From assembly GCA_021786105.1 (NCBI GenBank), contig JAJYNW010000015.1:1-64000 (forward strand): a DNA stretch of 64,000 nucleotides, given 5' to 3'. The stretch is from a bacterium. GTDB lineage: Bacteria > Patescibacteriota > Microgenomatia > Daviesbacterales > UBA10151. Of this stretch, positions 28,947-64,000 are shown piece by piece. Numbering within the stretch: the stretch's first letter is position 1; the number at the start of each line of letters is the position of its first letter. The position numbers and the translations under genes were made by a program. The notes beneath the pieces were generated by a model. That model was given only the letters and a program-made list of their open reading frames with translations, was not told the origin of the DNA and searched no databases.

Positions 28947-29056
28947 AATCTCAAATCTTAGATCTCAAATCGCAAATCTACATCTTAAATTTAAAAACTT
29001 TTAAAGCTTTGAGTTTTAAGTTGCAGTTTTGACCTTTGACATTTGAGATTTGAGTT
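28947..29056. repeat. 7-nt-periodic AT-rich palindrome (TCAAAT/TTTGA family)
   Basis: ATCTCAAATCTTAGATCTCAAATCGCAAAT...TTTGACCTTTGACATTTGAGATTTGAG. Confidence 0.7.
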
Positions 29057-29067
29057 TGTTATTTTAT

Positions 29068-29266
29068 GGAGGTGGTATCTCAGGTCGAAGTTTCGACCCA
29101 AGAGATAATGGGAACCAGGTGCAAATCCTGGACTGTGCCGCAACGGTAATTGTTAGGGTTTAGGGTTTAGATTTCTTGCGATTTCTAAAAGCGCAGCTTT
29201 CAAGCTTTGCTTATACCCTATTGGCTATACCCTAGTCTCTAACATTAGTCCGGAGACCGACCACGC
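29068..29266 (+). ncRNA. cobalamin riboswitch
   Basis: GGT-ATCTC...GAGAT-AATGGGAA-CCAGG-TGCAAAT-CCTGG-ACTGTGCCGCAACGGTAA...AGTCCGGAGACCGACC fits the core consensus, including the T-loop hairpin and B12 box. Confidence 0.8.
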
Positions 29267-29268
29267 TT

Positions 29269-29344
29269 AGTGACTAGTCGCTAGTGACTAGAGTCAAGTG
29301 TAATTTGCTTTTTCCAGACTCTAGTCACTCGATTCTAGATTCTA
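29269..29344. repeat. 7-nt-periodic palindrome (CTAG/GACTAGTC family) after the riboswitch
   Basis: AGTGACTAGTCGCTAGTGACTAGAGTCAAGTG...GACTCTAGTCACTCGATTCTAGATTCTA. Confidence 0.8.
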
Positions 29345-48426: not shown

Positions 48427-48847
48427 GGGGATGTATTGTCTCGACAGGATTGCTCTTTAAAAACTGCAAGCCGCTTAGGAAACATTAAGCGTTAAATATT
48501 GTTTCAAAACACAAACGGCACAAGTTATTTGTCCCGTGCTGCAGGCAAAATGGCTGAGCAGATGTCTGACTTTGGGAGAAATCTCTTAGTTGGCTCTACT
48601 CGAGTCGCTTTCGCTTAAAGCTACTTTAGGTCATATCTTCTTTCTGACGGGATACTAAGGTACGTACAAAGTCAGGATGCTGTTGGCAAAGTGTTGGTTG
48701 ATCTTTGCTAACAAAAGACGACTCAATCATTCATTAGTTTTCCTGCTAATTGGTTACAACTAATGAACAAAAATTAATTAGCTAAGCTTGTAGAAGTTTG
48801 AGAAGTTACAATTTTGGACGGGGGTTCAAAACCCCCCATCTCCACCA
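48427..48847 (+). ncRNA. ssrA: tmRNA
   Basis: 5' GGGGATGT...TCGAC, 3' GACGGGGGTTCAAAACCCCCCATCTCCACCA; tag ORF ending VAFA*; directly after smpB. Confidence 0.95.
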
Positions 48848-49856: not shown

Positions 49857-49943
49857 CGGAGAGGGTGGGATTTGAACCCACGGTCCTCTTACGAGGACAG
49901 CGCATTAGCACTGCGCCGCACTAGGCCACTATGCGACCTCTCC
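49857..49943 (-). tRNA. tRNA-Ser(GCT)
   Basis: GGAGAGG acceptor, GCGCA-GTGCTAA-TGCGC anticodon arm, long variable arm, TTCAAAT T-loop. Confidence 0.93.
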
Positions 49944-49966
49944 TTAAAAAATGCTATATCAAAGGG

Positions 49967-50054
49967 CGGTGGGGGTGAGATTCGAACTCACGGTAGTATT
50001 ACTACTACATTGGTTTTCAAGACCAACCTGATAAACCACTCCAAGCACCCCACC
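49967..50054 (-). tRNA. tRNA-Ser(TGA)
   Basis: TTGGT-CTTGAAA-ACCAA anticodon arm, long variable arm, TTCGAAT T-loop. Confidence 0.93.
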
Positions 50055-50139
50055 CTGTAGCGCTAATTGTAACAAACTGTCTCTTGATAATCTAGAAGAG
50101 TAATGGCATGATAATTGCAGAGTGGCTTAGTGCAAAATT

Positions 50140-50898
50140 ATGATAATTGGTACTTGTCTGTTTTGTAAGAGAAAATACAGAAAAAGAGAAAAAAAACGCA
50201 AATTTTGTTCTTTATCATGCTCGAGTAGTTACAATAAAAACGGCCTTAATCAGGTAATCTTGCCTCGTAAGAGTAGGCTTTTAGCAGAATTTATAGGTAT
50301 TTGTCTCGGTGATGGTTATGCTTCTGGTTATCAAGCAGGTATTACACTAAACTCTATAGCGGATCGAAATTATTTGTTATATGTGGAAGATTTGGCAAGG
50401 AACTTATTTCCTGGAGCTACTTTTTCCATAATTAAGAGAAAAAAAGAAAATGCTATTGATATTAGAATAAATTCTAAAACAGTAGTAATTTTTCTTAAAG
50501 GTATGGGGGTTATTCCTAATGCAAAGACAATACCAGATTGGATATTGAAAGAGGAGAAGTATACTAGAGCATGCGTTCGTGGATTATTTGATACAGAAGG
50601 TTCAATATCTTTTAAGTGCTATAGAGGTAAGAATGGAATAAGTGTCTATAAACAGTTAAATTTTAGAAATTCCAATATGATACTAATGGGTTTTGTTAAG
50701 AATAGCTTGATTAATCTTGGTTTAAAGCCAACTACTACGATGAGAAGATCGCTCTATTTAAGTAATCACGACAGTATAGATACATACCGTAAGAAGATTG
50801 GGTTTAGTAATCCTAAGCTAAGGGAAAGAAGTTTAATAGAGGATATTTCTGCTTATCTTAACTGGAAAACAAGATTTGATAATCCAGCTATTACTTAA
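50140..50898 (+). CDS. free-standing LAGLIDADG endonuclease-like protein with N-terminal Cys cluster
   Basis: LAEFIGICLGDG and VRGLFDTEGS motifs; C..C...FCS..C N-terminus; AT-rich. Confidence 0.85.
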   Translation: MIIGTCLFCKRKYRKREKKRKFCSLSCSSSYNKNGLNQVILPRKSRLLAEFIGICLGDGYASGYQAGITLNSIADRNYLLYVEDLARNLFPGATFSIIKRKKENAIDIRINSKTVVIFLKGMGVIPNAKTIPDWILKEEKYTRACVRGLFDTEGSISFKCYRGKNGISVYKQLNFRNSNMILMGFVKNSLINLGLKPTTTMRRSLYLSNHDSIDTYRKKIGFSNPKLRERSLIEDISAYLNWKTRFDNPAIT

Positions 50899-50926
50899 AT
50901 AAATATTAGGTTATAATCTAACTACC

Positions 50927-51529
50927 ATGCCCGAGGAAGAGAAACAAAAACCCTCTAAAAAGGAGACTCCAAAGCATCCAGAGCGAGAATCTGTCGGGCC
51001 GGAATTTTTTACCCCTAAGATGATGGAAACAGAAGAGATTAAAACCTTGCTCTCTTGGGAAGCGCCGTCCCGGCCTTTCCGGAAAAAAGACCGTTCGTAT
51101 TACACTACTATTATTATTTTGGTGGTGTTGATAGTGTTAATTGTTTTTCTTTGGCTGGGGGATTTTTTACTGATTGGTGTAATTTTATCTTTTGGCTTTG
51201 TTGCCTATGTTTTAGCATTTGTACCGCCACACAATATCAAATATAAAATTTCTACTCAGGGGATTACCATTGGGGAAGATTTCTACTTTTGGCATTTTTT
51301 GGATGCTTTTTGGTTTAAGGAAAAAGACGGGTCAAAAGTATTACATATCCAAACGCGCCTGTCCTTTCCTGCTCAACTGATGTTGGTTTTGGGCAATATG
51401 AGTGAGAAGGGGGTTAAAAAAGTGGTAGCTAGGTTTTTGCCGTTTGTAGAAGTGCCATACAAAACCTGGATGGAGAAATGGTCGGATGGTTTACAAAAGC
51501 ATTTTCCTTTAGAAAATGTTCATCATTAA
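50927..51529 (+). CDS. conserved membrane protein (DUF5673-like)
   Basis: LLSWEAPSRPF, two TMs, Y.ISTQGI.I....Y.W..L..FWF. Confidence 0.65.
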   Translation: MPEEEKQKPSKKETPKHPERESVGPEFFTPKMMETEEIKTLLSWEAPSRPFRKKDRSYYTTIIILVVLIVLIVFLWLGDFLLIGVILSFGFVAYVLAFVPPHNIKYKISTQGITIGEDFYFWHFLDAFWFKEKDGSKVLHIQTRLSFPAQLMLVLGNMSEKGVKKVVARFLPFVEVPYKTWMEKWSDGLQKHFPLENVHH

Positions 51530-51600
51530 TTTTAAGGTTTATCCCTTGTGATTGGTTTACTGTTGCCGAGTTTGATTTTATAGTACAATAACCCCTGTTT

Positions 51601-51676
51601 GCGCCTGTAGCTCAGCGGATAGAGCGCAACGTTGCGGACGTTGAAGTCGGGGGTTCAATTCCCTCCAGGCGCACCA
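51601..51676 (+). tRNA. tRNA-Arg(GCG)
   Basis: CAACG-TTGCGGA-CGTTG anticodon arm; encoded CCA. Confidence 0.92.
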
Positions 51677-51681
51677 AGGGA

Positions 51682-51769
51682 GGTGGGGTCGCATAGTGGC
51701 CTAGTGCGCTGGTTTCGAAAACCGGTATACCGTAAGGTATCGTGAGTTCAAATCTCACCCCCACCGCCA
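51682..51769 (+). tRNA. tRNA-Ser(CGA)
   Basis: CTGGT-TTCGAAA-ACCGG anticodon arm, long variable arm, CCA. Confidence 0.93.
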
Positions 51770-51770
51770 T

Positions 51771-51842
51771 GCCCTCGTAGGCTAATGGATAGACCCCGGG
51801 ATTCCGGATCCCGTGATGTGGGTTCGATTCCCACCGAGGGCA
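51771..51842 (+). tRNA. tRNA-Arg(CCG)
   Basis: CGGGA-TTCCGGA-TCCCG anticodon arm, TTCGATT T-loop. Confidence 0.92.
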
Positions 51843-51850
51843 CTTGTTAT

Positions 51851-52264
51851 ATGAAACGTGAGTTTTCAGCAGGTGGGATTGTTTTTAATAATGAGGGTCA
51901 GGTGTTGGTAACCCAGCACTCTCAAAATAAGCATTGGAGTTTCCCCAAAGGTTTACTTGATCATCCTGAGCAAACTACAGAAGAATCAGCATTAAGAGAA
52001 GTTAGGGAAGAGGGGGGAGTGGAGGCAAAAATTGTCGGCAAGGTGGGTTATAACAAGTATGTCTATACTTTTAATGGAGAGAAAATCTTTAAAGCGGTAA
52101 CTTATTTTTTAATGGAATATGTCTCAGGAGATATTAAAGATCATGATTGGGAAGTGTCTGAGGCTGGTTGGTATGAACCGGAAGACGCTTTAAAACGACT
52201 TACATTTAATCAGGATAAGGAATTGCTAAAGAAAGCTTTAGAAATAAGGGAGGTGTCATCCTGA
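51851..52264 (+). CDS. NUDIX hydrolase
   Basis: SAGGIV, WSFPKG, ESALREVREEGG Nudix box; true start ATG 51851. Confidence 0.9.
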   Translation: MKREFSAGGIVFNNEGQVLVTQHSQNKHWSFPKGLLDHPEQTTEESALREVREEGGVEAKIVGKVGYNKYVYTFNGEKIFKAVTYFLMEYVSGDIKDHDWEVSEAGWYEPEDALKRLTFNQDKELLKKALEIREVSS

Positions 52265-52343
52265 GCGAAGCGAAGGATCTCTCGCGGATGCGAGTATTCC
52301 TGAAACAAGTTCAGAGATTCTTCGGCTATGTCTCAGAATGACA
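52254..52343. repeat. REP-like palindromic element supplying the NUDIX stop and the TlyA start
   Basis: TGTCATCCTGAGCGAAGCGAAGGATCTC...GAGATTCTTCGG...CTCAGAATGACA. Confidence 0.85.
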
Positions 52344-52912
52344 AAAAACAATTTGTTTCCCGGGGCGGGATAAAACTGCAGGCAGTCTTAGATAAGTTTC
52401 AAATTGATGTTAAAGATAAAGTAGTTTTGGATGTGGGTTCTTCCACCGGCGGATTTGTGGATTGTCTTTTGCAGCAGGGTGCTAAAAAAGTTTATGCGGT
52501 GGATACGGCTTATGGGGAATTGGCTTGGAGACTTAGAAATGATCCAAGGGTGGTGGTGATGGAGCGGATTAATATTTTGCATCTGGAAAGTTTACCTGAA
52601 CCAGTCGATTTAATTACCATTGATGCCGGTTGGACTAAGTTAGAGCTAATCTTACCGATTGTAAAGAAGTTCCTCAAACCTGATGGTTTTATTATTGCTT
52701 TACTTAAGCCTCACTATCAAGCAGATAAAAAAATCCTTAGAAAGGGTGTAGTTCCTGAGGATTTAGTAGAAAGTATTAAGAATCAAGTATTAAGGATTAT
52801 AGAAGAATTAGGATTTAAGATTCAAGGGGAAATGGAATCGCCGATTTTAGGTGGTGCAGGAAACAGGGAATATCTACTTTTTTGCGAAGTAAAAAAGCAA
52901 GCAGGCTTTTGA
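52328..52912 (+). CDS. tlyA: TlyA-family rRNA methyltransferase (no S4 domain)
   Basis: FVSRGG.KL, LDVGSSTGGF.DCLLQ.GA, L.KP and SPI.G..GN.EYL motifs. Confidence 0.85.
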   Translation: MSQNDKKQFVSRGGIKLQAVLDKFQIDVKDKVVLDVGSSTGGFVDCLLQQGAKKVYAVDTAYGELAWRLRNDPRVVVMERINILHLESLPEPVDLITIDAGWTKLELILPIVKKFLKPDGFIIALLKPHYQADKKILRKGVVPEDLVESIKNQVLRIIEELGFKIQGEMESPILGGAGNREYLLFCEVKKQAGF

Positions 52913-52922
52913 AAAAAGATTC

Positions 52923-53135
52923 TTACTTCTTCTTTTTTTGAGAAATGAAGAGATAAATTAAGGGTAAAATGCCAATAGAATTAATAACCAGTAAAGCAAT
53001 GAACCAATAAAGCTGTTTATTCCGGGCCGCCCGCCACAGGGCAAAACCTTTTAAAACTAAATCAAGGATGGCAAATGGTGCCAACCAGGCAAAGGGACCA
53101 AAATTATACATGTGGTAAAAATATCCCGGCATCAT
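52923..53135 (-). CDS. small membrane protein (DUF5652-like)
   Basis: KG.ALWRAARN.Q..WFI.LL.IN..GILP.IY motif. Confidence 0.75.
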   Translation of the reverse strand: MMPGYFYHMYNFGPFAWLAPFAILDLVLKGFALWRAARNKQLYWFIALLVINSIGILPLIYLFISQKKKK

Positions 53136-53175
53136 AATTTAAGTACACCACTTTACGCCAAAAATTGCAAGGGGG

Positions 53176-53264
<89 letters not shown>

Positions 53265-56700: not shown

Positions 56701-56775
56701 TCCCCTGTAGCTCAACGGTAGAGCAGGAAGCTGTTAACTTCAAGGTTCGTGGTTCGAATCCACGCGGGGGAGCCA
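56701..56775 (+). tRNA. tRNA-Asn(GTT), probable integration site
   Basis: TCCCCTG acceptor, GAAG-CTGTTAA-CTTC anticodon arm, TTCGAAT T-loop, CCA. Confidence 0.94.
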
Positions 56776-58263
56776 AGGTGTTTTCTGTATAACCTGCTGA
56801 TTATCGCGCAGTGTCGCGAAAATCGGAGTTGGGACAGTTGCAAAAATCTTCTTATTTTTAACCATTACCTTCTCATAAAAGAACCTTAAGTAGTGCCGCT
56901 TCATAAAGGGTGGCGCATCCTTATAAGTCGCGTAAATATCGCGTGTGAAGGCCAATGTATCGTCAATCAGGTTGATATCGATTCTGCAGCGGTCATCGAC
57001 ATCCTGTAATTGTGTTTCCATTTGTCTTACCTGATCCTGTAGCTCGGTGTGCTTGCGCTTAAACACTTCCCGGTCGATTGTTCCCTCAATCAGCGCATCC
57101 TCAAGCTTATTTCTCTTCATCTCAAGGGCTAGTTTCTGATTAAGAATGCCCTGCTTGACACTTGTGGCATTTGCGCGGCTCTCTTCCAGTTTCTCGCGCG
57201 TTTTTCGGACAACGGCTTCGATAAAATCAGGGCTAAACTGCATATTCTTAAATTCCTGCTCAACCTGATACTCAAGATCATCCACTTCTACATATGGTGC
57301 GCGACAACCATTTCGTTCTCGCTTAGGGCAATGATAATAGGCTATCTTGCCGCCTCGAGCGCGCAGTTTATGCGCGTTCTTATGCCATTCAGCCACATAA
57401 CGCTGACCACATTCGGAACAGTAGACAAAACCGCCTAAGAGCCAGTTGTGTATTCGGCGACGCATTAGAAAGTTGCGATGCTTGGCCAGAACATACTGGC
57501 AGGTGTCATATATGTCTTTTGAAATAATTGGTATGTGATTGCCCATCTTTCCTTCGCCGTGCCAACGAATCCAGCCGTAGTAGAAGGGGTTGTTGAGAAT
57601 GGTGTGAATAACGCTGTGACCCAAACCTGTGCCAGTTCGCGACAAGATATTGCGTTCTGCCAGCCAATCCTGAATCTCAATGATGGAATAGTTGCCTGTG
57701 GAGTAAAGTTCATACAGTTCTTTGATAATTGGCGCAGTGTAGGGGTCAGGCTCGCAGGTTTTGCGCTCTCTGTCACCGCCAACAGTTCGGTAGCCAATAG
57801 GCGGTGGTGTAGGTTGCCAACCTTCCCGGAATTTTTGTACCAGCGCGTCACGCGTGCGCTGGCCGTTTACATCAGATTCCCATTCAGCGACACTAGCGAG
57901 AATATTAGCAATAAGACTCGATCCTTGCGTCACATTGCCTTCTAAGACAGAAATCATCTGAAGCCCTTTTGACTCGATCTCTTTGCGGGTATCGCGAAAA
58001 TCTGAAACATTGCGCGCAAAGCGGTCGATTTTGTAGATAATCAGCGCGTCAACTTTGAACTCATCGACTGCTTTAAGAAGTTCTTGGAAGGCTGGGCGTT
58101 GCGTGGTGCGCCCGCTTTTGCCATCATCGAGAAATATGTGCTTTACATGGTAATCGTGGCTACGCGCATAATCCATACAGGCGCGTTTTTGGTTCTCCAA
58201 CGAGAAGCCTTCAGTCGCCTGTTCATCGGTTGAAACGCGCAGGTATAAGTAGCAGGTATTCAT
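56740..58263 (-). CDS. large serine recombinase (resolvase, recombinase, zinc ribbon, coiled coil)
   Basis: YLRVSTDEQ, D.GKSG, RPAF, KIDRFARN, P.GY, LNNPFY.G, C..C...YYHC; C-terminus WLPRVDSNHEP is antisense to the tRNA. Confidence 0.92.
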   Translation of the reverse strand: MNTCYLYLRVSTDEQATEGFSLENQKRACMDYARSHDYHVKHIFLDDGKSGRTTQRPAFQELLKAVDEFKVDALIIYKIDRFARNVSDFRDTRKEIESKGLQMISVLEGNVTQGSSLIANILASVAEWESDVNGQRTRDALVQKFREGWQPTPPPIGYRTVGGDRERKTCEPDPYTAPIIKELYELYSTGNYSIIEIQDWLAERNILSRTGTGLGHSVIHTILNNPFYYGWIRWHGEGKMGNHIPIISKDIYDTCQYVLAKHRNFLMRRRIHNWLLGGFVYCSECGQRYVAEWHKNAHKLRARGGKIAYYHCPKRERNGCRAPYVEVDDLEYQVEQEFKNMQFSPDFIEAVVRKTREKLEESRANATSVKQGILNQKLALEMKRNKLEDALIEGTIDREVFKRKHTELQDQVRQMETQLQDVDDRCRIDINLIDDTLAFTRDIYATYKDAPPFMKRHYLRFFYEKVMVKNKKIFATVPTPIFATLRDNQQVIQKTPWLPRVDSNHEP

Positions 58264-58472
58264 ATTCCCCGGTTTAGGTCGCTGAACCTCATTTTCATCG
58301 GGCGCTGTCCGTATCTTCGTGCTATCTTTGCGGCTTCTTTGTTGATTATGTCCAGATACGGCTTCGTTTTTTCTTTCGCCTGCTCGTAGGTCATCACGCC
58401 ATGTCGCATCGCCAGATGTATCGCGCGCGTCTCTGCCAGCAATTCTCGCAAGTTTATCTTTTCGTTCTTCAT
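58260..58472 (-). CDS. small hypothetical protein upstream of the recombinase
   Basis: 70-aa ORF, ATGA-coupled to the recombinase start. Confidence 0.6.
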   Translation of the reverse strand: MKNEKINLRELLAETRAIHLAMRHGVMTYEQAKEKTKPYLDIINKEAAKIARRYGQRPMKMRFSDLNRGI

Positions 58473-58524
58473 AATGTCTTATAGTCGTATCAATATTCAT
58501 AAGATTTTTAGCTTATTGCAAGCC

Positions 58525-58911
58525 TTAAGTTTGATTTTCCTTTGCGCGTTTCCAAGTCGCCACATCGGTAAAGATAATACTTAACGGCTCGCCATCCTTA
58601 CTCTCGTGCTGTATCCTGTCGGTCTCAATCATTCCGTGGTCTGATTTCAAAAGAAAGATAATGACAGAAGGGCTTTTAAGTCCAAGTGTCTTTAGGGTCA
58701 GCCGTTGGTGATCCATTATGCGGTCTACCGCTCCGCAAAAGTCCTCATTAGCCTCGGACCAGCGTTTTAGACTATCTGTACTTACCCCTAAACGCTCGGC
58801 AAACTCTTCAAGAAAAGGTATTTTCCGGGCGTTTTTGCACTCTATGAGGTACTTTTCCGCCTCTTTTATAAACTCTCCTTTGTACTTAGTTGGCCTACCC
58901 ATTTTTGTCAT
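58525..58911 (-). CDS. terminase small subunit-like protein
   Basis: MGRPTKY N-terminus, HTH (FAERLGVSTDSLKRW), IFLLK..HG and G.PL.I.F tail typical of TerS. Confidence 0.65.
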   Translation of the reverse strand: MTKMGRPTKYKGEFIKEAEKYLIECKNARKIPFLEEFAERLGVSTDSLKRWSEANEDFCGAVDRIMDHQRLTLKTLGLKSPSVIIFLLKSDHGMIETDRIQHESKDGEPLSIIFTDVATWKRAKENQT

Positions 58912-59666
58912 ACTGATTTTTTCTGCTGTTCACCATGTTTTTCAAAATATTCCTTAACTTTTGCATTAAAAACCTTGCCTTTGTTCTCAATAGTAGGATC
59001 CTGTTTTATCTCCCTGACATACTGATAAAACATGTTTGGGGGTAGTCCTTTTTCTAATGCGCGCAAATAGGTTAATTTTAGTGCCCAAGGATGGTCTGGC
59101 TCTAGCGCTATATGTGCCTCATTGGCCGCAACCTCACCCTCGTTAGTGGGATTAAAAAATTTACTTGTATAGTTTTTTTCCACTTCCATACCTAAAAACT
59201 CTTTATCGGCGACATATTCGCTTTTATTACTCTCTGTTGGATTTAATTCGCTTATATTAGATTGAGTAGCACTAGTGGTACCATTTTGTATCCCATCCGT
59301 CTCCAAATTGGATCCATTATTATTAGTAAGTGAGGGTAAATCCGAAGGTTTATATCTATCACTTTTAATTTGTTGATACTTTCCCCAATTTATAAATTCA
59401 ACAAACCACTCTTCAGTTTTCAGATTAGGCCACCAATATATCAATCCCGCATCGTGCATTTCTTCTAAATAATGCTTAATTTTCTTAAATGACCATTTCT
59501 TCAAAGGAACGACAGTACCTTTTATGGACTCCGCTTCTCCTCGCATTCTTCCATCATCATCAGCGTGAGCAATCATCCAAGTAAAGAGTAGCTGCGCAGG
59601 TGGGGAAAGTTTATTTACCTGCAACGAGGTTGATATTTTGTTATGTAACATTCGAGCTTTAGCCAT
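58908..59666 (-). CDS. phage-type replication initiator (replisome organiser-like)
   Basis: MA.ARM......S......LS..AQLLF......ADD.GR and NW.KYQ....DRYKPS motifs. Confidence 0.7.
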   Translation of the reverse strand: MAKARMLHNKISTSLQVNKLSPPAQLLFTWMIAHADDDGRMRGEAESIKGTVVPLKKWSFKKIKHYLEEMHDAGLIYWWPNLKTEEWFVEFINWGKYQQIKSDRYKPSDLPSLTNNNGSNLETDGIQNGTTSATQSNISELNPTESNKSEYVADKEFLGMEVEKNYTSKFFNPTNEGEVAANEAHIALEPDHPWALKLTYLRALEKGLPPNMFYQYVREIKQDPTIENKGKVFNAKVKEYFEKHGEQQKKSV

Positions 59667-60693: not shown

Positions 60694-61314
60694 TTACAGC
60701 GAGGTAAGTCCGTCATACTTTGCGGCGCGGTGATTAGTGTTATCCGTAAAATAGTACTGAGCAATTTTGTATCCATAAGCGGTTTGGTCAAGTTCCAGCG
60801 CCATGCGCACTACCTTCGCGACATAGCCGACAAACTCGCCTCCAGATGGGATTATGCGCAACTCATCTACAATAACGCGCACTCGCGCGCCCTGTCGGCT
60901 CACGCTGCGCACATAATGCGCATCAACGGAGAAATTACGCCCTTGTGTTGCAAAAAGTCGCGCCGGGTTTGATACACCAACACGCGCGAGATCCACACCG
61001 AGTATAGAGTCTAGTTCTGACTGTTCCTCTTTTGTTTCAGGTGAAGAAAAGAAGTTCATGACTTTCTCCGCATCTCTTTGCTGTAGTGCGTTTTCAAAGG
61101 TATCCGTCAAAGCCACAACCTGTGTTTGTTTATCATCACTGACACCTGAAGCGCTAATTCCTTGCGCTTCGAGAACAATCTCGTTTCCGGTGTTTATCTG
61201 TTGAGTTTGGGGAGTAACGCGATGTGCAAACCACCCAATTGAAAAGCCCAGTAATAAGAATCCGGCAGGAACGAGTAGCATGAGCGCTTTGTATTTTTGG
61301 AAAGTGTTAAACAT
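60694..61314 (-). CDS. membrane-anchored hypothetical protein
   Basis: N-terminal TM; ATG 61314 preferred. Confidence 0.6.
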   Translation of the reverse strand: MFNTFQKYKALMLLVPAGFLLLGFSIGWFAHRVTPQTQQINTGNEIVLEAQGISASGVSDDKQTQVVALTDTFENALQQRDAEKVMNFFSSPETKEEQSELDSILGVDLARVGVSNPARLFATQGRNFSVDAHYVRSVSRQGARVRVIVDELRIIPSGGEFVGYVAKVVRMALELDQTAYGYKIAQYYFTDNTNHRAAKYDGLTSL

Positions 61315-61318
61315 AATT

Positions 61319-61531
61319 TTATTTACCCCAAACACGAAAGATAATAAGACAAGGAACAGAGACAATAATGCTTCCTAAAATAAATTGAGTAAAGTTTGGC
61401 TCAGTCCAAGACCTTAGAACTGTCGTTCCCTGAGTTTCTACAACTGGGGTAAGTGTAAAAACAAACATTAGGGCGATCAAAACAACCCAAACAGTCAAAA
61501 TTACCTTTTGGCTTTTATTTAATGTTTTCAT
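61319..61531 (-). CDS. small two-TM protein
   Basis: Two hydrophobic helices; AGGGGTGA SD-like site upstream. Confidence 0.6.
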   Translation of the reverse strand: MKTLNKSQKVILTVWVVLIALMFVFTLTPVVETQGTTVLRSWTEPNFTQFILGSIIVSVPCLIIFRVWGK

Positions 61532-61574
61532 TCTCCATGCTCACCCCCTTTGGGTTTTTGCTGGAGAGGAATGT

Positions 61575-61705
61575 AAAAGCTCCCCGCTAGCGATGGCTTG
61601 CGCCACCTGCAAACCTTTCGGTCTGCAACCTTCGCAGGTGCTCTAACGAGGAGCTGTTTCCTGCGAAGGTTTTGATGCCATGCCCCTTACGGGGTTTAGG
61701 CAATA
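61575..61705 (-). ncRNA. candidate structured RNA (four-way junction with GNRA loops, alternative pairing)
   Basis: Four GNRA-capped hairpins and G-U-compatible stems on the minus strand; TATAAT at 61721-61726 (minus). Confidence 0.6.
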
Positions 61706-61779
61706 TTAAAATGTGAGGTAATTATACAACATTTGATGTATAATTGGGTGGAAGTTTTTTGTCTTAATAAGGGTATTAC

Positions 61780-61965
61780 ATGCCAAGAGCCATAAAACTA
61801 TTAAGAATACGCGAGGCGGCGGAAATGTTGGGGGTAAACCCCGAAACGCTACGGCGTTGGGACAAAAGCGGCAAACTTAAACCTATCATCATAAGTAAAC
61901 GCGGTGATAGGCGCTATAAAAAGGAGGATATTGTACGGTTCCTTAAAAAACTTGCCGAACAATAA
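61780..61965 (+). CDS. MerR/excisionase-type HTH DNA-binding protein
   Basis: LLRIREAAEMLGVNPETLRRWD..GKL...G.RRY motif. Confidence 0.88.
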   Translation: MPRAIKLLRIREAAEMLGVNPETLRRWDKSGKLKPIIISKRGDRRYKKEDIVRFLKKLAEQ

Positions 61966-61979
61966 CTATAAAAATAAAT

Positions 61980-64000
61980 ATGGAATATGTTGATGAGCAC
62001 GCCACGCGCAAAAAGTGGATAGACGATAAACTCAAAAAATCGGGTTGGGAAAACATTATCCCCTACAAAGAGGGCTTAGATACAACCACACTACACAAAA
62101 CCGCAGTTGAGGAGTTTGTTACCGCGACTGGACCCGTTGATTATGCGCTTTTTGCCAATGGTAAATTAGTTGCGTTTGTTGAGGCTAAAAAAATCGGTCT
62201 TGGTCCCCAAAATGTATTATCCCAAGCTCAACGTTATGTAAAAGGTGCCCAAGCTCAAGGACAGGAAGTGCCGTTTATTTATTCCACAAATGGCGAAGTG
62301 ATTTGGTTCCAAGATTTACGCATAAGCCCAAGCCGCTCACGCCAAGTCGCGGAATTTCACACACCAAAGGCACTTATTGAATACCTCACCAACCCGACCC
62401 ATGAGAATGTACGTTGGTTTACCGATAACCCGCCCGATTATGCCAAGTTACGCTACTACCAACGCGACGCTATTGTTGCCATTGAAAACGCCATAGCTAA
62501 TCACAAACGCTCAATGCTTGTTGCTATGGCAACTGGTACGGGCAAGACATTTACTATTGCCTCACTCGCTTACCGCTTGCTCAAATCGGGTGTAAGCAAA
62601 CGCATTTTGTTTTTAGTTGACCGTAAAGCGTTAGCCGCCCAAGCAGTGATGGAGTTTGCGGCATATGAGGCGGAAAACGGCTTAAAGTTTAACCAAATAT
62701 ACCAAGTGTATAGCCAACGTTTTCACCTAGACGATTTTGAAAGTGATGAAAAAGTTGATTTTAATATGGTACCCACAAGTTACCTTACCGACCCCGACGG
62801 GAACCAAGTATTTGTATATGTATCAACCATACAGCGGATGCAAATTAACTTATACGGCAAGGAGGGAATGTTTAGTTACAGTGGTGATTATGACCCCGAC
62901 GATGATGCCGATAAAATTGATATGCCTATTAACGCCTTTGATACGATTGTTGCCGATGAATGTCATAGAGGTTATACCTCACAGGAAGTGAGCAAGTGGC
63001 GTGGCGTACTTGACCATTTTGATGCCTTAAAAATAGGACTTACGGCAACACCAGCGGCACACACAACTAGCTATTTTAAGGAAATTGCCTACCGCTACAC
63101 CTATGAGCAAGCCGTACAAGATGGGTATTTGGTTGATTATGACGCCGTAAAAATATCCTCAGGTGTTCGTATTAAAGGCATTACCCTAAAAGAGGGTGAA
63201 GAGGTTGAGCAAGTTGATACCGAAACGGGAGCGCAACAACTTGATTTACTTGAGGACGAGCGGCATTTTGAGGTTGCTGATGTTGAGCGCGATATTACCG
63301 CGCCCGATAGCAACCGCAAAATTATCCAGGAGTTTGCAAAATATGCCCTTGAGCAAGAAAAAGAATTAGAGCGTTTCCCCAAAAGTTTGATCTTTGCCCA
63401 TAATGACCTGCCACACACGTCTCACGCCGACCAGTTGGTTGATATTTGCCGTGATGTATTTGGCAGGGGTGATGCATTCGTGCAAAAAATAACGGGTTCA
63501 CCCACCGTTGACCGACCGCTCACCCGCATAAAGGAGTTTAGAAACCGCCCCGACCCTCATATTGTTATCACCGTGGACATGCTATCAACAGGTGTCGATA
63601 TACCCTCAATTGAAAATATTGTGTTTTTGCGCGCTGTAAAATCGCGTATTCTCTTTGAGCAAATGCTTGGGCGTGGCACAAGACTTTGCAAAAACTTCCC
63701 CAATGGTCTAGGCACGCTCGAAAAAACTCACTTTACGGTGTTTGACTGCTTTGACGGCACGCTTTTGGAAGCATTCAAAAATAGCACAGGTATTACCCAG
63801 GTCACACCAGTAAACCCAACCCGTACTATTGAACAAATTATTAGCGATATAAACAACAACATTGATGTTGAATACAATACGCGTTGCCTCGTAAAGCGAT
63901 TGCAACGCATCGCCAAAAACATTACCTCTGAGGGTCGGGAAATGTTTGCTAAATACATAGCCGATGGCGACATTGCCGCCTTTGCCAAAAACTTACCCGA
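61980..64000 (+). CDS. hsdR: type I restriction enzyme R subunit (partial, runs off window; not in ORF track)
   Basis: ATG 61980; VDYAL...VEAKK...QAQRY nuclease motif, LRYYQ, MATGTGKT, DECHRG, GLTATP, MLSTGVD and QMLGRGTR motifs. Confidence 0.92.
   Translation, partial: MEYVDEHATRKKWIDDKLKKSGWENIIPYKEGLDTTTLHKTAVEEFVTATGPVDYALFANGKLVAFVEAKKIGLGPQNVLSQAQRYVKGAQAQGQEVPFIYSTNGEVIWFQDLRISPSRSRQVAEFHTPKALIEYLTNPTHENVRWFTDNPPDYAKLRYYQRDAIVAIENAIANHKRSMLVAMATGTGKTFTIASLAYRLLKSGVSKRILFLVDRKALAAQAVMEFAAYEAENGLKFNQIYQVYSQRFHLDDFESDEKVDFNMVPTSYLTDPDGNQVFVYVSTIQRMQINLYGKEGMFSYSGDYDPDDDADKIDMPINAFDTIVADECHRGYTSQEVSKWRGVLDHFDALKIGLTATPAAHTTSYFKEIAYRYTYEQAVQDGYLVDYDAVKISSGVRIKGITLKEGEEVEQVDTETGAQQLDLLEDERHFEVADVERDITAPDSNRKIIQEFAKYALEQEKELERFPKSLIFAHNDLPHTSHADQLVDICRDVFGRGDAFVQKITGSPTVDRPLTRIKEFRNRPDPHIVITVDMLSTGVDIPSIENIVFLRAVKSRILFEQMLGRGTRLCKNFPNGLGTLEKTHFTVFDCFDGTLLEAFKNSTGITQVTPVNPTRTIEQIISDINNNIDVEYNTRCLVKRLQRIAKNITSEGREMFAKYIADGDIAAFAKNLP

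Follow-up and report, generated by a model that had tools for sequence, protein, structure and literature searches.

The window analysed here is a 64,000-nt stretch of DNA from a Daviesbacteria-genus CPR genome, and the element described below lies inside a 248-nt gap between two divergent gene sets. The rightward set, on the plus strand, opens with a gene for a 61-aa MerR/HTH_17, excisionase-like regulator (61780–61965; Pfam; PHROGs phrog_66; PADLOC mad1, 7.6e-15), which leads a type I restriction R subunit gene extending from 61980 to the window end (PADLOC REase_I, 7e-88). The leftward set, on the minus strand, begins with two genes whose products matched no family: a 70-aa protein with two hydrophobic segments (two-TM; 61319–61531) and a 223-aa protein with an N-terminal membrane anchor (60694–61365). 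The first of these genes has a Shine-Dalgarno-like sequence, GGGGGUGAG (61548–61540), and an ATG start codon (61531–61529), which together occupy 61529–61548. Four small unknown genes follow the 223-aa gene leftward. Pfam and PHROGs further revealed a replication-initiator-like (rep-like) gene (58908–59666), a small-terminase-like (terS-like) gene (58525–58911), and a large serine integrase gene (56740–58500) that overlaps tRNA-Asn (56701–56775), all on the minus strand; a second gene for a 70-aa protein also belongs to this set. PADLOC and Pfam searches with the seven leftward genes between the element and the terS-like gene returned nothing but a weak DUF5659 match. With regard to the borders of the island, no repeat of at least 13 nt of the tRNA-Asn region was found elsewhere on the 82.7-kb contig.

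The element is read on the minus strand, and all coordinates given below refer to that strand. A TATAAT hexamer (61721–61726) is the predicted −10 box of its promoter, from which an RNA of approximately 140 nt is predicted to extend from a start site near 61714 to about 61575. A simple sigma-70 promoter scan did not list this promoter because it has no good −35 sequence. The first domain, P1 (61676–61702), consists of an outer 4-bp stem, an internal loop with the halves CCUAAAC and GCAUGG, and a CCCC-GUAA-GGGG hairpin (61694–61683); both stems are supported by the Rfam alignment and by covariation. The P2 lower stem is formed by a 5' strand, designated segment A in the original prediction (61660–61671), and its perfect complement, the 3' strand (61627–61638), which was assigned by the Rfam alignment and had been described as the first inner hairpin. 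Between these strands lies the P2 tip (61640–61655), in which either a 4-bp apical hairpin (61654–61651 with 61643–61640), as in the Rfam consensus, or a pairing of 61655–61643 with the 3' tail can form. The P3 hairpin (61609–61626; GAAA loop at 61619–61616) and the P4 hairpin (61592–61607; GCAA loop at 61601–61598), both supported by the Rfam alignment and covariation, come next. The 3' tail (61578–61590) is the complement of the P2 tip, and all 13 pairs of the stem 61655–61643/61590–61578 are standard, two of them being G-U. It is followed by the sequence UUU-ACAUU (61570–61577), in which the U run proper is short (61577–61575; three to four U, then ACAUU), and by a second, imperfect copy of the tip, b2 (61559–61572), which can pair with the tail at −11.9 kcal/mol. 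The TATAAT hexamer, the hairpins, segment A, the 13-bp stem, and the U run were all found on the minus strand where the original prediction had placed them. Folding of the minus strand gives −65.8 kcal/mol (z = −5.8), a value equalled by none of 200 shuffled sequences, and the z value of the plus-strand fold is −4.3.

Membership in the LOOT RNA family

A scan of the whole window with Rfam 15 matched RF03000 (LOOT RNA) at 61592–61702 on the minus strand. The score was 90.0 bits compared to a gathering score of 46.4, and the match spanned model positions 1–121 of 121 (E = 9.4e-18). The six helices of the model (P1 outer, P1 inner hairpin, P2 lower, P2 apical, P3, and P4) are all present with standard pairs, and the unpaired motifs, namely the two P1 halves and the A-rich linker before P2, are identical to the model consensus. 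The window element is thus a member of the LOOT family, and its membership is secure. In the core, including the receptor-like P1 loop, the long P2, and the GAAA and GNRA hairpins, we found no differences from the Rfam description. The claim that the RNA is novel is therefore wrong, as the element matches a known family over the full model with roughly double the score required. A comparison of 61300–62000 with all 4227 Rfam families at E ≤ 1 gave nothing besides LOOT, and no c4-type model was among the matches, so the likeness to P1 c4 and P4 CI RNA seen in the original prediction is not one of family.

The LOOT motif originates from the survey of Weinberg et al. 2017 (PMC5737381), whose main text does not discuss it. 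In three further papers, LOOT is listed among the "metagenomic-based RNAs" (Rfam 14; PMC7779021), is given about 43 base pairs in six helices (CaCoFold; PMC7657543), and gains two covarying pairs (Rfam 15; PMC11701678). Rfam assigns it the type "Gene; sRNA". A literature search on LOOT and RF03000, including combinations with Patescibacteria, returned database and method papers only, and no function, host, or mechanism. The RF03000 model stops at P4 and leaves the 3' tail outside. What the present analysis adds to the public model is the conserved tail that pairs with the P2 tip and is followed by a U-tract, in addition to the host and the gene context.

Homologs were collected with the tail-less Rfam model. 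Matches were found in 15 of 151 close relatives (14 above the cut-off). An even sample of 151 genomes from the phylum of the host contained 30 with a match above the cut-off, and none of the 14 control genomes gave a match in either search. The loci above the cut-off constitute the set of 41 homologous loci used below; L015 (30 bits) was dropped. An extended model (R1), which includes the tail, scored the window element at 124.8 bits over 61560–61702 and detected no second copy in the window. A stricter DNA pattern was also applied to named genomes, and 75 of the 80 loci fetched among the matches listed were confirmed by the extended model. Among these matches listed, the record titles of the 75 loci named CPR lineages in 37 cases, "uncultured Gammaproteobacteria/Pseudomonadales" in 24, Bathyarchaeota or Bathyarchaeia in four, and TM6 and Bdellovibrionales in one each; the other eight were unclassified. 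Several of the 24 records titled Gammaproteobacteria or Pseudomonadales are contigs or chromosomes of 0.8–0.9 Mb. In viral contigs, screening of 80 loci found with a loose P1 pattern gave one full match (L061) and one weak match (L098; 24.6 bits, E = 0.0049), the rest being mostly chance hits. On the L061 contig, LOOT is flanked on one side by a ParB-methyltransferase/terminase block, and on the other a 299-aa gene begins 14 nt past the motif. Another viral locus, L279, had been picked up by the stricter pattern and was not confirmed by the model.

Several features outside the helices recur in the family. In 34 of the 41 loci, the 60 nt upstream contain a −10-like hexamer. All 41 loci have a GAAA loop on P3, and 36 have a loop of the GNRA type on P4. 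An ACAAYY-type box occurs just 5' of P1 in 20 of the 41 loci. The internal loop of P1 reads CCUAAAC/GCAUGG in 23 loci, CCUAAC with UAUGG in nine or ten, and CCUAAG/UAUGG in one. The canonical 11-nt GAAA tetraloop receptor of group I and group II introns and RNase P is CCUAAG...UAUGG. All LOOT loci thus carry near-matches to this receptor, one of the 41 matches it exactly, and the commonest LOOT loop differs from it in having A with C in place of G with U at the closing wobble position. Given this likeness, the invariant GAAA loop of P3, and the variable loop of P4, we infer that P3 may dock into P1.

Pairing of the 3' tail with the P2 tip

The 20 nt following the end of the Rfam match are complementary to the P2 tip in essentially every locus, with letters that differ between loci. 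In an alignment-free comparison of the 41 loci, duplexes of the P2 region with its own tail had a mean energy of −26.8 kcal/mol compared to −18.1 kcal/mol with foreign tails, a difference reached in none of 10,000 permutations. The own tail ranked best in nine loci and among the best four in 35. The one clear miss was L035, in which the Rfam match ends early. The same helix was selected by RNAalifold, unprompted, in a MAFFT alignment of 32 of the 41 loci, from which nine loci had been omitted on account of having the longest insertions. Eight of its 10 aligned pairs are altered on both sides, and 95.9% of the cells are paired; when the partners were slid by one to three columns, the pairing dropped to 34–46%. 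In the same alignment, eight of the nine pairs of P3 are altered on both sides, and P4 also covaries. None of 500 shuffles in a whole-structure control reached any of the five measures. A further alignment of 76 rows, A2, was left out of the tail covariation, since the pattern by which it was collected fixes part of the tail.

The search for homologs and covariation that the original prediction had proposed thus produced 41 loci with covarying helices, and it also bears on the orientation of the element. Two columns of the tip-tail stem retain G-U pairs, as UG in 22 and 27 of the 32 sequences. This retention fits an RNA on the minus strand, as had been proposed, rather than a DNA inverted repeat. 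If the element acted as DNA only, as a REP-type repeat or as inverted operator sites for the neighboring HTH protein, the three related 13-nt segments beside the HTH gene (the tip, the tail, and the post-terminator copy) would be accounted for. However, the element is present in a single copy in the host genome (approximately 1.04 Mb in 26 contigs), according to both the Rfam model and BLAST, which also speaks against the REP-type repeat named earlier as a possible trivial explanation. Moreover, the G-U pairs are kept on the minus strand only, the GNRA and GAAA loops are conserved on that strand, all six helices covary with sequences that differ between loci, and an HTH_17/MerR neighbor is found in just five of the 41 loci. 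We therefore regard the DNA-only explanation as nearly refuted.

The end of the helix resembles that of a terminator. In 40 of the 41 loci, the tail is succeeded by a U-tract (at least five U in 8 nt), with which an A-rich stretch 5' of the tip is able to pair in most loci. The tip-tail duplex of the window RNA alone has an energy of −21.2 kcal/mol, and this G+C-rich 13-bp helix ends one base before the U-tract, a feature of intrinsic terminators. A simple hairpin terminator scan did not list it because the helix is long-range and hence atypical. The long closing stem, which is absent from the public model, is thus real and conserved and resembles a terminator. In this respect, the 13-bp closing stem with its U run, as originally described, has been borne out by RNAalifold, the pair counts, the permutations, and the U-tract in 40 of the 41 loci. 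Termination is predicted at the U-tract, judging from the sequence.

The tail competes with another conserved pairing for the same nucleotides. The P2 lower stem is an uninterrupted helix of 9–14 bp, differing in sequence, in all 41 homologs, and the P2 apical hairpin, which is also part of the Rfam consensus, appears in the minimum free energy (MFE) folds of the isolated P2 in all 41 loci. Since the tail binds nucleotides of the apical hairpin, the tip-tail helix and the apical hairpin are mutually exclusive. The tip-tail helix and the P2 lower stem, if formed together, would make up a pseudoknot. In the RNA of the window (61714–61570), the Rfam fold (−58.7 kcal/mol) and the fold originally proposed (−59.6 kcal/mol) are nearly isoenergetic. 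For the transcript up to P4, in which the tail has not yet been made, the MFE structure is the Rfam fold (−57.5 kcal/mol).

The original prediction had placed three GNRA hairpins inside the closing stem and had regarded segment A as the competitor of the first of them, ACCU-GCGA-AGGU. The GAAA hairpin of P3 and the GCAA hairpin of P4 are conserved. The ACCU-GCGA-AGGU hairpin is peculiar to the window copy, in which its energy of −3.1 kcal/mol is the best in the family. We rejected it as a conserved feature: it reaches −1 kcal/mol or lower in only 14 of the 41 loci, and its mean is −0.73 kcal/mol compared to −0.29 kcal/mol for shuffled sequences. The conserved partner of the strand 61627–61638 is segment A. 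Mutually exclusive pairings do exist, as proposed, but the hairpin that competes with the closing stem throughout the family is the P2 apical hairpin and not the inner hairpin.

Downstream genes and the possible function of LOOT

In 39 of the 41 loci, a co-oriented ORF starts within 400 nt downstream of LOOT, and in 23 it starts within 75 nt of the Rfam end. The downstream products are diverse and include a subtilase, a thermonuclease, a DUF4352 protein, an Ltp-like lipoprotein, zinc-ribbon membrane proteins, and many proteins without a family; only five related pairs were found among the 39 ORFs. The sole common thread is at least one hydrophobic segment, present in 30 of the 39 according to a crude hydropathy count. 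The upstream neighbors include HTH_17/MerR genes (five of the 41 loci), AbiV, a ParB-methylase, a terminase-like gene, a reverse transcriptase, and an AAA_15 ATPase, and also ribosomal protein L27. In one subfamily (L009, L010, L014, and many A2 rows), a promoter-like pair, TTGACA...TAACAT, follows the terminator, suggesting that the next gene may be transcribed independently in that subfamily. In the window, no TAnnnT or other −10-like box can be read from the sequence of approximately 40 nt between the U-tract and the start codon.

The leader of the downstream gene shows complementarity to LOOT. When the 130 nt that follow were searched for the best partner of the tail, it was located no more than 15 nt from the U-tract in 28 of the 41 loci. 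The tail paired with the leader of its own locus at a mean of −13.8 kcal/mol compared to −11.9 kcal/mol with the leaders of other loci, and the P2 3' strand likewise at −9.1 compared to −7.1 kcal/mol; in both cases none of 10,000 permutations reached the difference. A control strand gave no signal (8745 of 10,000 permutations). The signal of the P2 3' strand is driven by five loci (L017, L020, L025, L028, and L034; z ≤ −4) in which a copy of the P2 5' strand lies on the ribosome-binding site. The complementarities past the terminator in the window itself are generic, with z = −0.1 for the tail and z = 0.0 (−7.8 kcal/mol) for the P2 3' strand. A BLAST search (short task) with the 261-nt region against the whole 1.04-Mb genome found only chance-level matches of 11–16 nt as targets in trans, besides the locus itself and its internal complement.

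These results bear on the antisense reading, in which LOOT would be a c4/CI-like "immunity" RNA that is released from the leader and blocks ribosome binding further down the operon. Such an RNA would be expected to carry a strand antisense to a downstream ribosome-binding site. In five of the 41 loci, the P2 5'-strand copy lies exactly there, with the P2 3' strand antisense to it; the copy of the tip past the U-tract in 28 loci and the fact that LOOT heads an operon in an integrated element with integrase, rep-like, and terS-like genes are also in keeping with this reading. However, the strand in question forms one side of a 12-bp stem instead of being exposed in a loop, and the pairing with the ribosome-binding site of the window is generic, as described above. 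In addition, BLAST revealed no other target in the genome, and neither a c4-type nor any other Rfam family besides LOOT was matched at E ≤ 1. We thus consider the antisense reading unlikely. The original prediction had left the choice between an attenuator and an antisense RNA; an attenuator is the best available reading and may apply here, while membership in the c4/CI group did not survive the Rfam scan, which gave LOOT only.

We put about an even chance on the reading that LOOT is a promoter-proximal, cis-acting gate of the terminator type on the leftward operon of the island. LOOT would be transcribed leftward from its own −10 promoter (61726–61721) as an RNA of approximately 140 nt. The 13-bp pairing between the tail and the tip, with the U-tract directly after it, suggests that the RNA ends in a long-range intrinsic terminator of a pseudoknot type. 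When the P2 apical hairpin is closed, the tail would be left without its terminator helix, and RNA polymerase would continue into the leftward operon, in which the genes for the two small membrane proteins come first and the rep-like, terS-like, and integrase genes later. Invasion of the tip by the tail would halt transcription at about 61575, so that only the short RNA would be made. The transcription, the termination at the U-tract, and the regulated read-through with its signal are all presumed from the sequence. A search of RNA data for 61200–62100 listed no run containing this stretch, and the three metatranscriptome runs it offered, all from one study, contained next to none of its words.

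Three observations lead us to favor a gate acting in cis: the tight spacing to a co-oriented gene, the use of the same nucleotides by the terminator helix and the apical hairpin, and the complementarity to the leader seen across the family. In particular, two mutually exclusive pairings are conserved, one of which is the terminator helix. On the other hand, the unrelated downstream genes are unlike the coherent regulons of ligand-sensing riboswitches, and the conserved unpaired nucleotides are few for a ligand pocket. No leader peptide spanning the switch was found in the LOOT loci. The generic complementarity past the terminator in the window, its short U-tract, and the promoter-like pair seen in one subfamily also speak against the gate. 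A helix of 13 bp should also beat a hairpin of 4 bp, so that termination could be constitutive, in which case LOOT would simply be an sRNA gene.

This last possibility deserves separate consideration. A free-standing sRNA of approximately 140 nt would have its own promoter and a constitutive terminator; the pseudoknot would serve only to end and compact a stable RNA with a role in trans or in protein binding, and the downstream genes would be independent of it. The promoter-like box upstream (34 of the 41 loci) and the U-tract downstream (40 of the 41) delimit just such a unit, and the 13-bp helix is strong enough (−21.2 kcal/mol) to be expected to win thermodynamically. The downstream genes are mutually unrelated, one subfamily has the TTGACA/TAACAT pair past the terminator, and the conserved features are structural, as in scaffold RNAs (the GAAA loop in 41 of the 41 loci, the receptor-like loop, and the GNRA loop in 36 of the 41). 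Nevertheless, no complementary target above the chance-level matches of 11–16 nt was detected in the 1.04-Mb host genome. A co-oriented ORF is present in 39 of the 41 loci, often too near to have its own promoter (approximately 40 nt in the window), and the locus-specific complementarity to the adjacent leader argues for an interaction between the RNA and the neighboring message. We regard the sRNA reading as a reasonable possibility, albeit one to which we assign a clearly lesser share of our belief.

Another way in which LOOT could act in cis is by modifying RNA polymerase, as do the RNAs of processive antitermination (HK022 put or EAR-like), so that transcription proceeds past its terminator and later ones. 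LOOT is promoter-proximal at the start of an array of nine leftward genes in a mobile element, it occupies the same position beside phage packaging genes on the viral contig, and its fold is compact and rich in tetraloops, all of which would suit such a role. The 5' strand of the terminator, however, is itself part of the structured fold, as would be expected of a direct structural switch; furthermore, no known antitermination RNA was matched in Rfam, and many LOOT loci precede a single short gene. Processive antitermination therefore appears very unlikely to us.

Extending the reading as a terminator-type gate to the whole family, we tentatively propose that LOOT is a widespread, unrecognized class of cis-regulatory RNA in CPR/Patescibacteria and mobile elements, and not a trans-acting sRNA. 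The state of the tetraloop-receptor fold would decide whether the pseudoknot terminator forms and, in some loci, whether the ribosome-binding site is accessible. In this way, LOOT would respond to a signal by controlling surface or membrane "cargo" genes and, in the window, all of the leftward operon of a satellite-like island. This proposal is more doubtful than not. To our knowledge, very few regulators are known from CPR bacteria, and a common RNA gate before their surface-protein genes would hence be useful to know, if true. With the covarying 3' helix, the architecture predicted for LOOT is no longer that of successive hairpins but that of a pseudoknot or switch, and the function becomes directly testable by termination assays and compensatory mutants. 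An orphan family has thus gained a host, a recurrent setting in mobile and defense islands and on a phage-like contig, an outline from promoter to terminator, and a 3' helix.

Comparison with known systems illustrates what is familiar and what is unusual in LOOT. Like P1 c4 and P4 CI RNA, LOOT is a short structured RNA heading an operon of a mobile element, and some of its relatives are complementary to the downstream ribosome-binding region. The complementary strands of LOOT, however, are located inside stems and not in loops. For some relatives, c4/CI RNA may serve as a model of how LOOT acts, but it does not imply membership in that family. A parallel in design may be found in the fluoride and ZTP terminator riboswitches, in which a segment is likewise shared by a small helix that keeps the gene open and a long terminator helix followed by U's; in LOOT, the two states are close in energy. 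LOOT differs from these riboswitches in having few conserved unpaired nucleotides, no known ligand, and incoherent downstream genes. Because the 5' strand of its terminator is the apical loop approximately 60 nt upstream, two whole hairpins are enclosed within the terminator "loop" of LOOT.

Conserved sequences around LOOT

Conserved sequence elements occur on both sides of LOOT, the structured RNA of Rfam family RF03000. In one subfamily, which comprises the homologous loci L009, L010, and L014 in other genomes and many rows of the 76-row alignment A2, a promoter-like pair (TTGATTTGACA...TAACAT) is conserved directly 3' of the terminator U-tract, and the spacer of the pair holds the tail-complementary segment. 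On the other side, a conserved box of the ACAAYYUA type lies 5–12 nt upstream of the Rfam 5' end, before the first hairpin P1, in 20 of the 41 loci exceeding the Rfam cut-off in two genome samples (61714–61703 in the window). The transcript may begin with this box; alternatively, at certain loci, the box itself may be the −10 element. The window also contains ordinary Rfam matches to a tmRNA (48427–48847), a cobalamin riboswitch (29056–29279), and tRNAs, with seven hits (tRNA cluster at 49857–53264).

LOOT loci recorded under other taxa

Among the DNA-pattern matches listed and confirmed by the tail-extended LOOT model, full-scoring copies (98–131 bits) were found on contigs recorded as archaeal or as bacterial from outside the candidate-phyla group (CPR): L206 and L211, on 385-kb and 99-kb contigs of a MAG titled Candidatus Bathyarchaeia, both L162 and L216 in a Bathyarchaeota MAG, L168 in a complete genome of candidate division TM6, and L235 in Bdellovibrionales. 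These records could reflect mis-binning or mislabelling, or else genuine dissemination by mobile elements. TPA MAGs titled "uncultured Gammaproteobacteria/Pseudomonadales" supply 24 of the 75 confirmed loci among the matches listed (L164, L174, L179, L183, L185, L187, L188, L194, L199–L201, L204, L205, L209, L210, L214, L215, L220, L221, L224, L230, L231, L238, and L240). Some of these MAGs possess a 0.84-Mb contig or a 0.89-Mb "chromosome", which are CPR-like sizes. The taxon names of the whole group look unreliable.

Genes and border of the island

Rightward of LOOT, a divergent gene for a 61-aa HTH protein, which matches PADLOC "mad1" (7.6e-15), leads a type I restriction R-subunit gene, as annotated by PADLOC, that extends past the window end (61780–64000, plus strand). 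This places LOOT in the control region that separates a defence operon from the replication and packaging genes of the island. At the integrase side (56701–58500), the ORF of a 586-aa large serine integrase overlaps, on the opposite strand, the 3' part of tRNA-Asn. No repeat of the tRNA-Asn region of at least 13 nt that could mark the far border of the island was found elsewhere on the 82.7-kb contig. Adjoining the integrase gene on the minus strand (58525–59666) are a small-terminase-like gene, whose product matches phrog_309, and a gene for a protein resembling replication initiators (phrog_1408); no capsid genes are in view. Judged from sequence, this combination of terminase-like, replication-initiator-like, and integrase genes is a phage-satellite-like set in a CPR genome.
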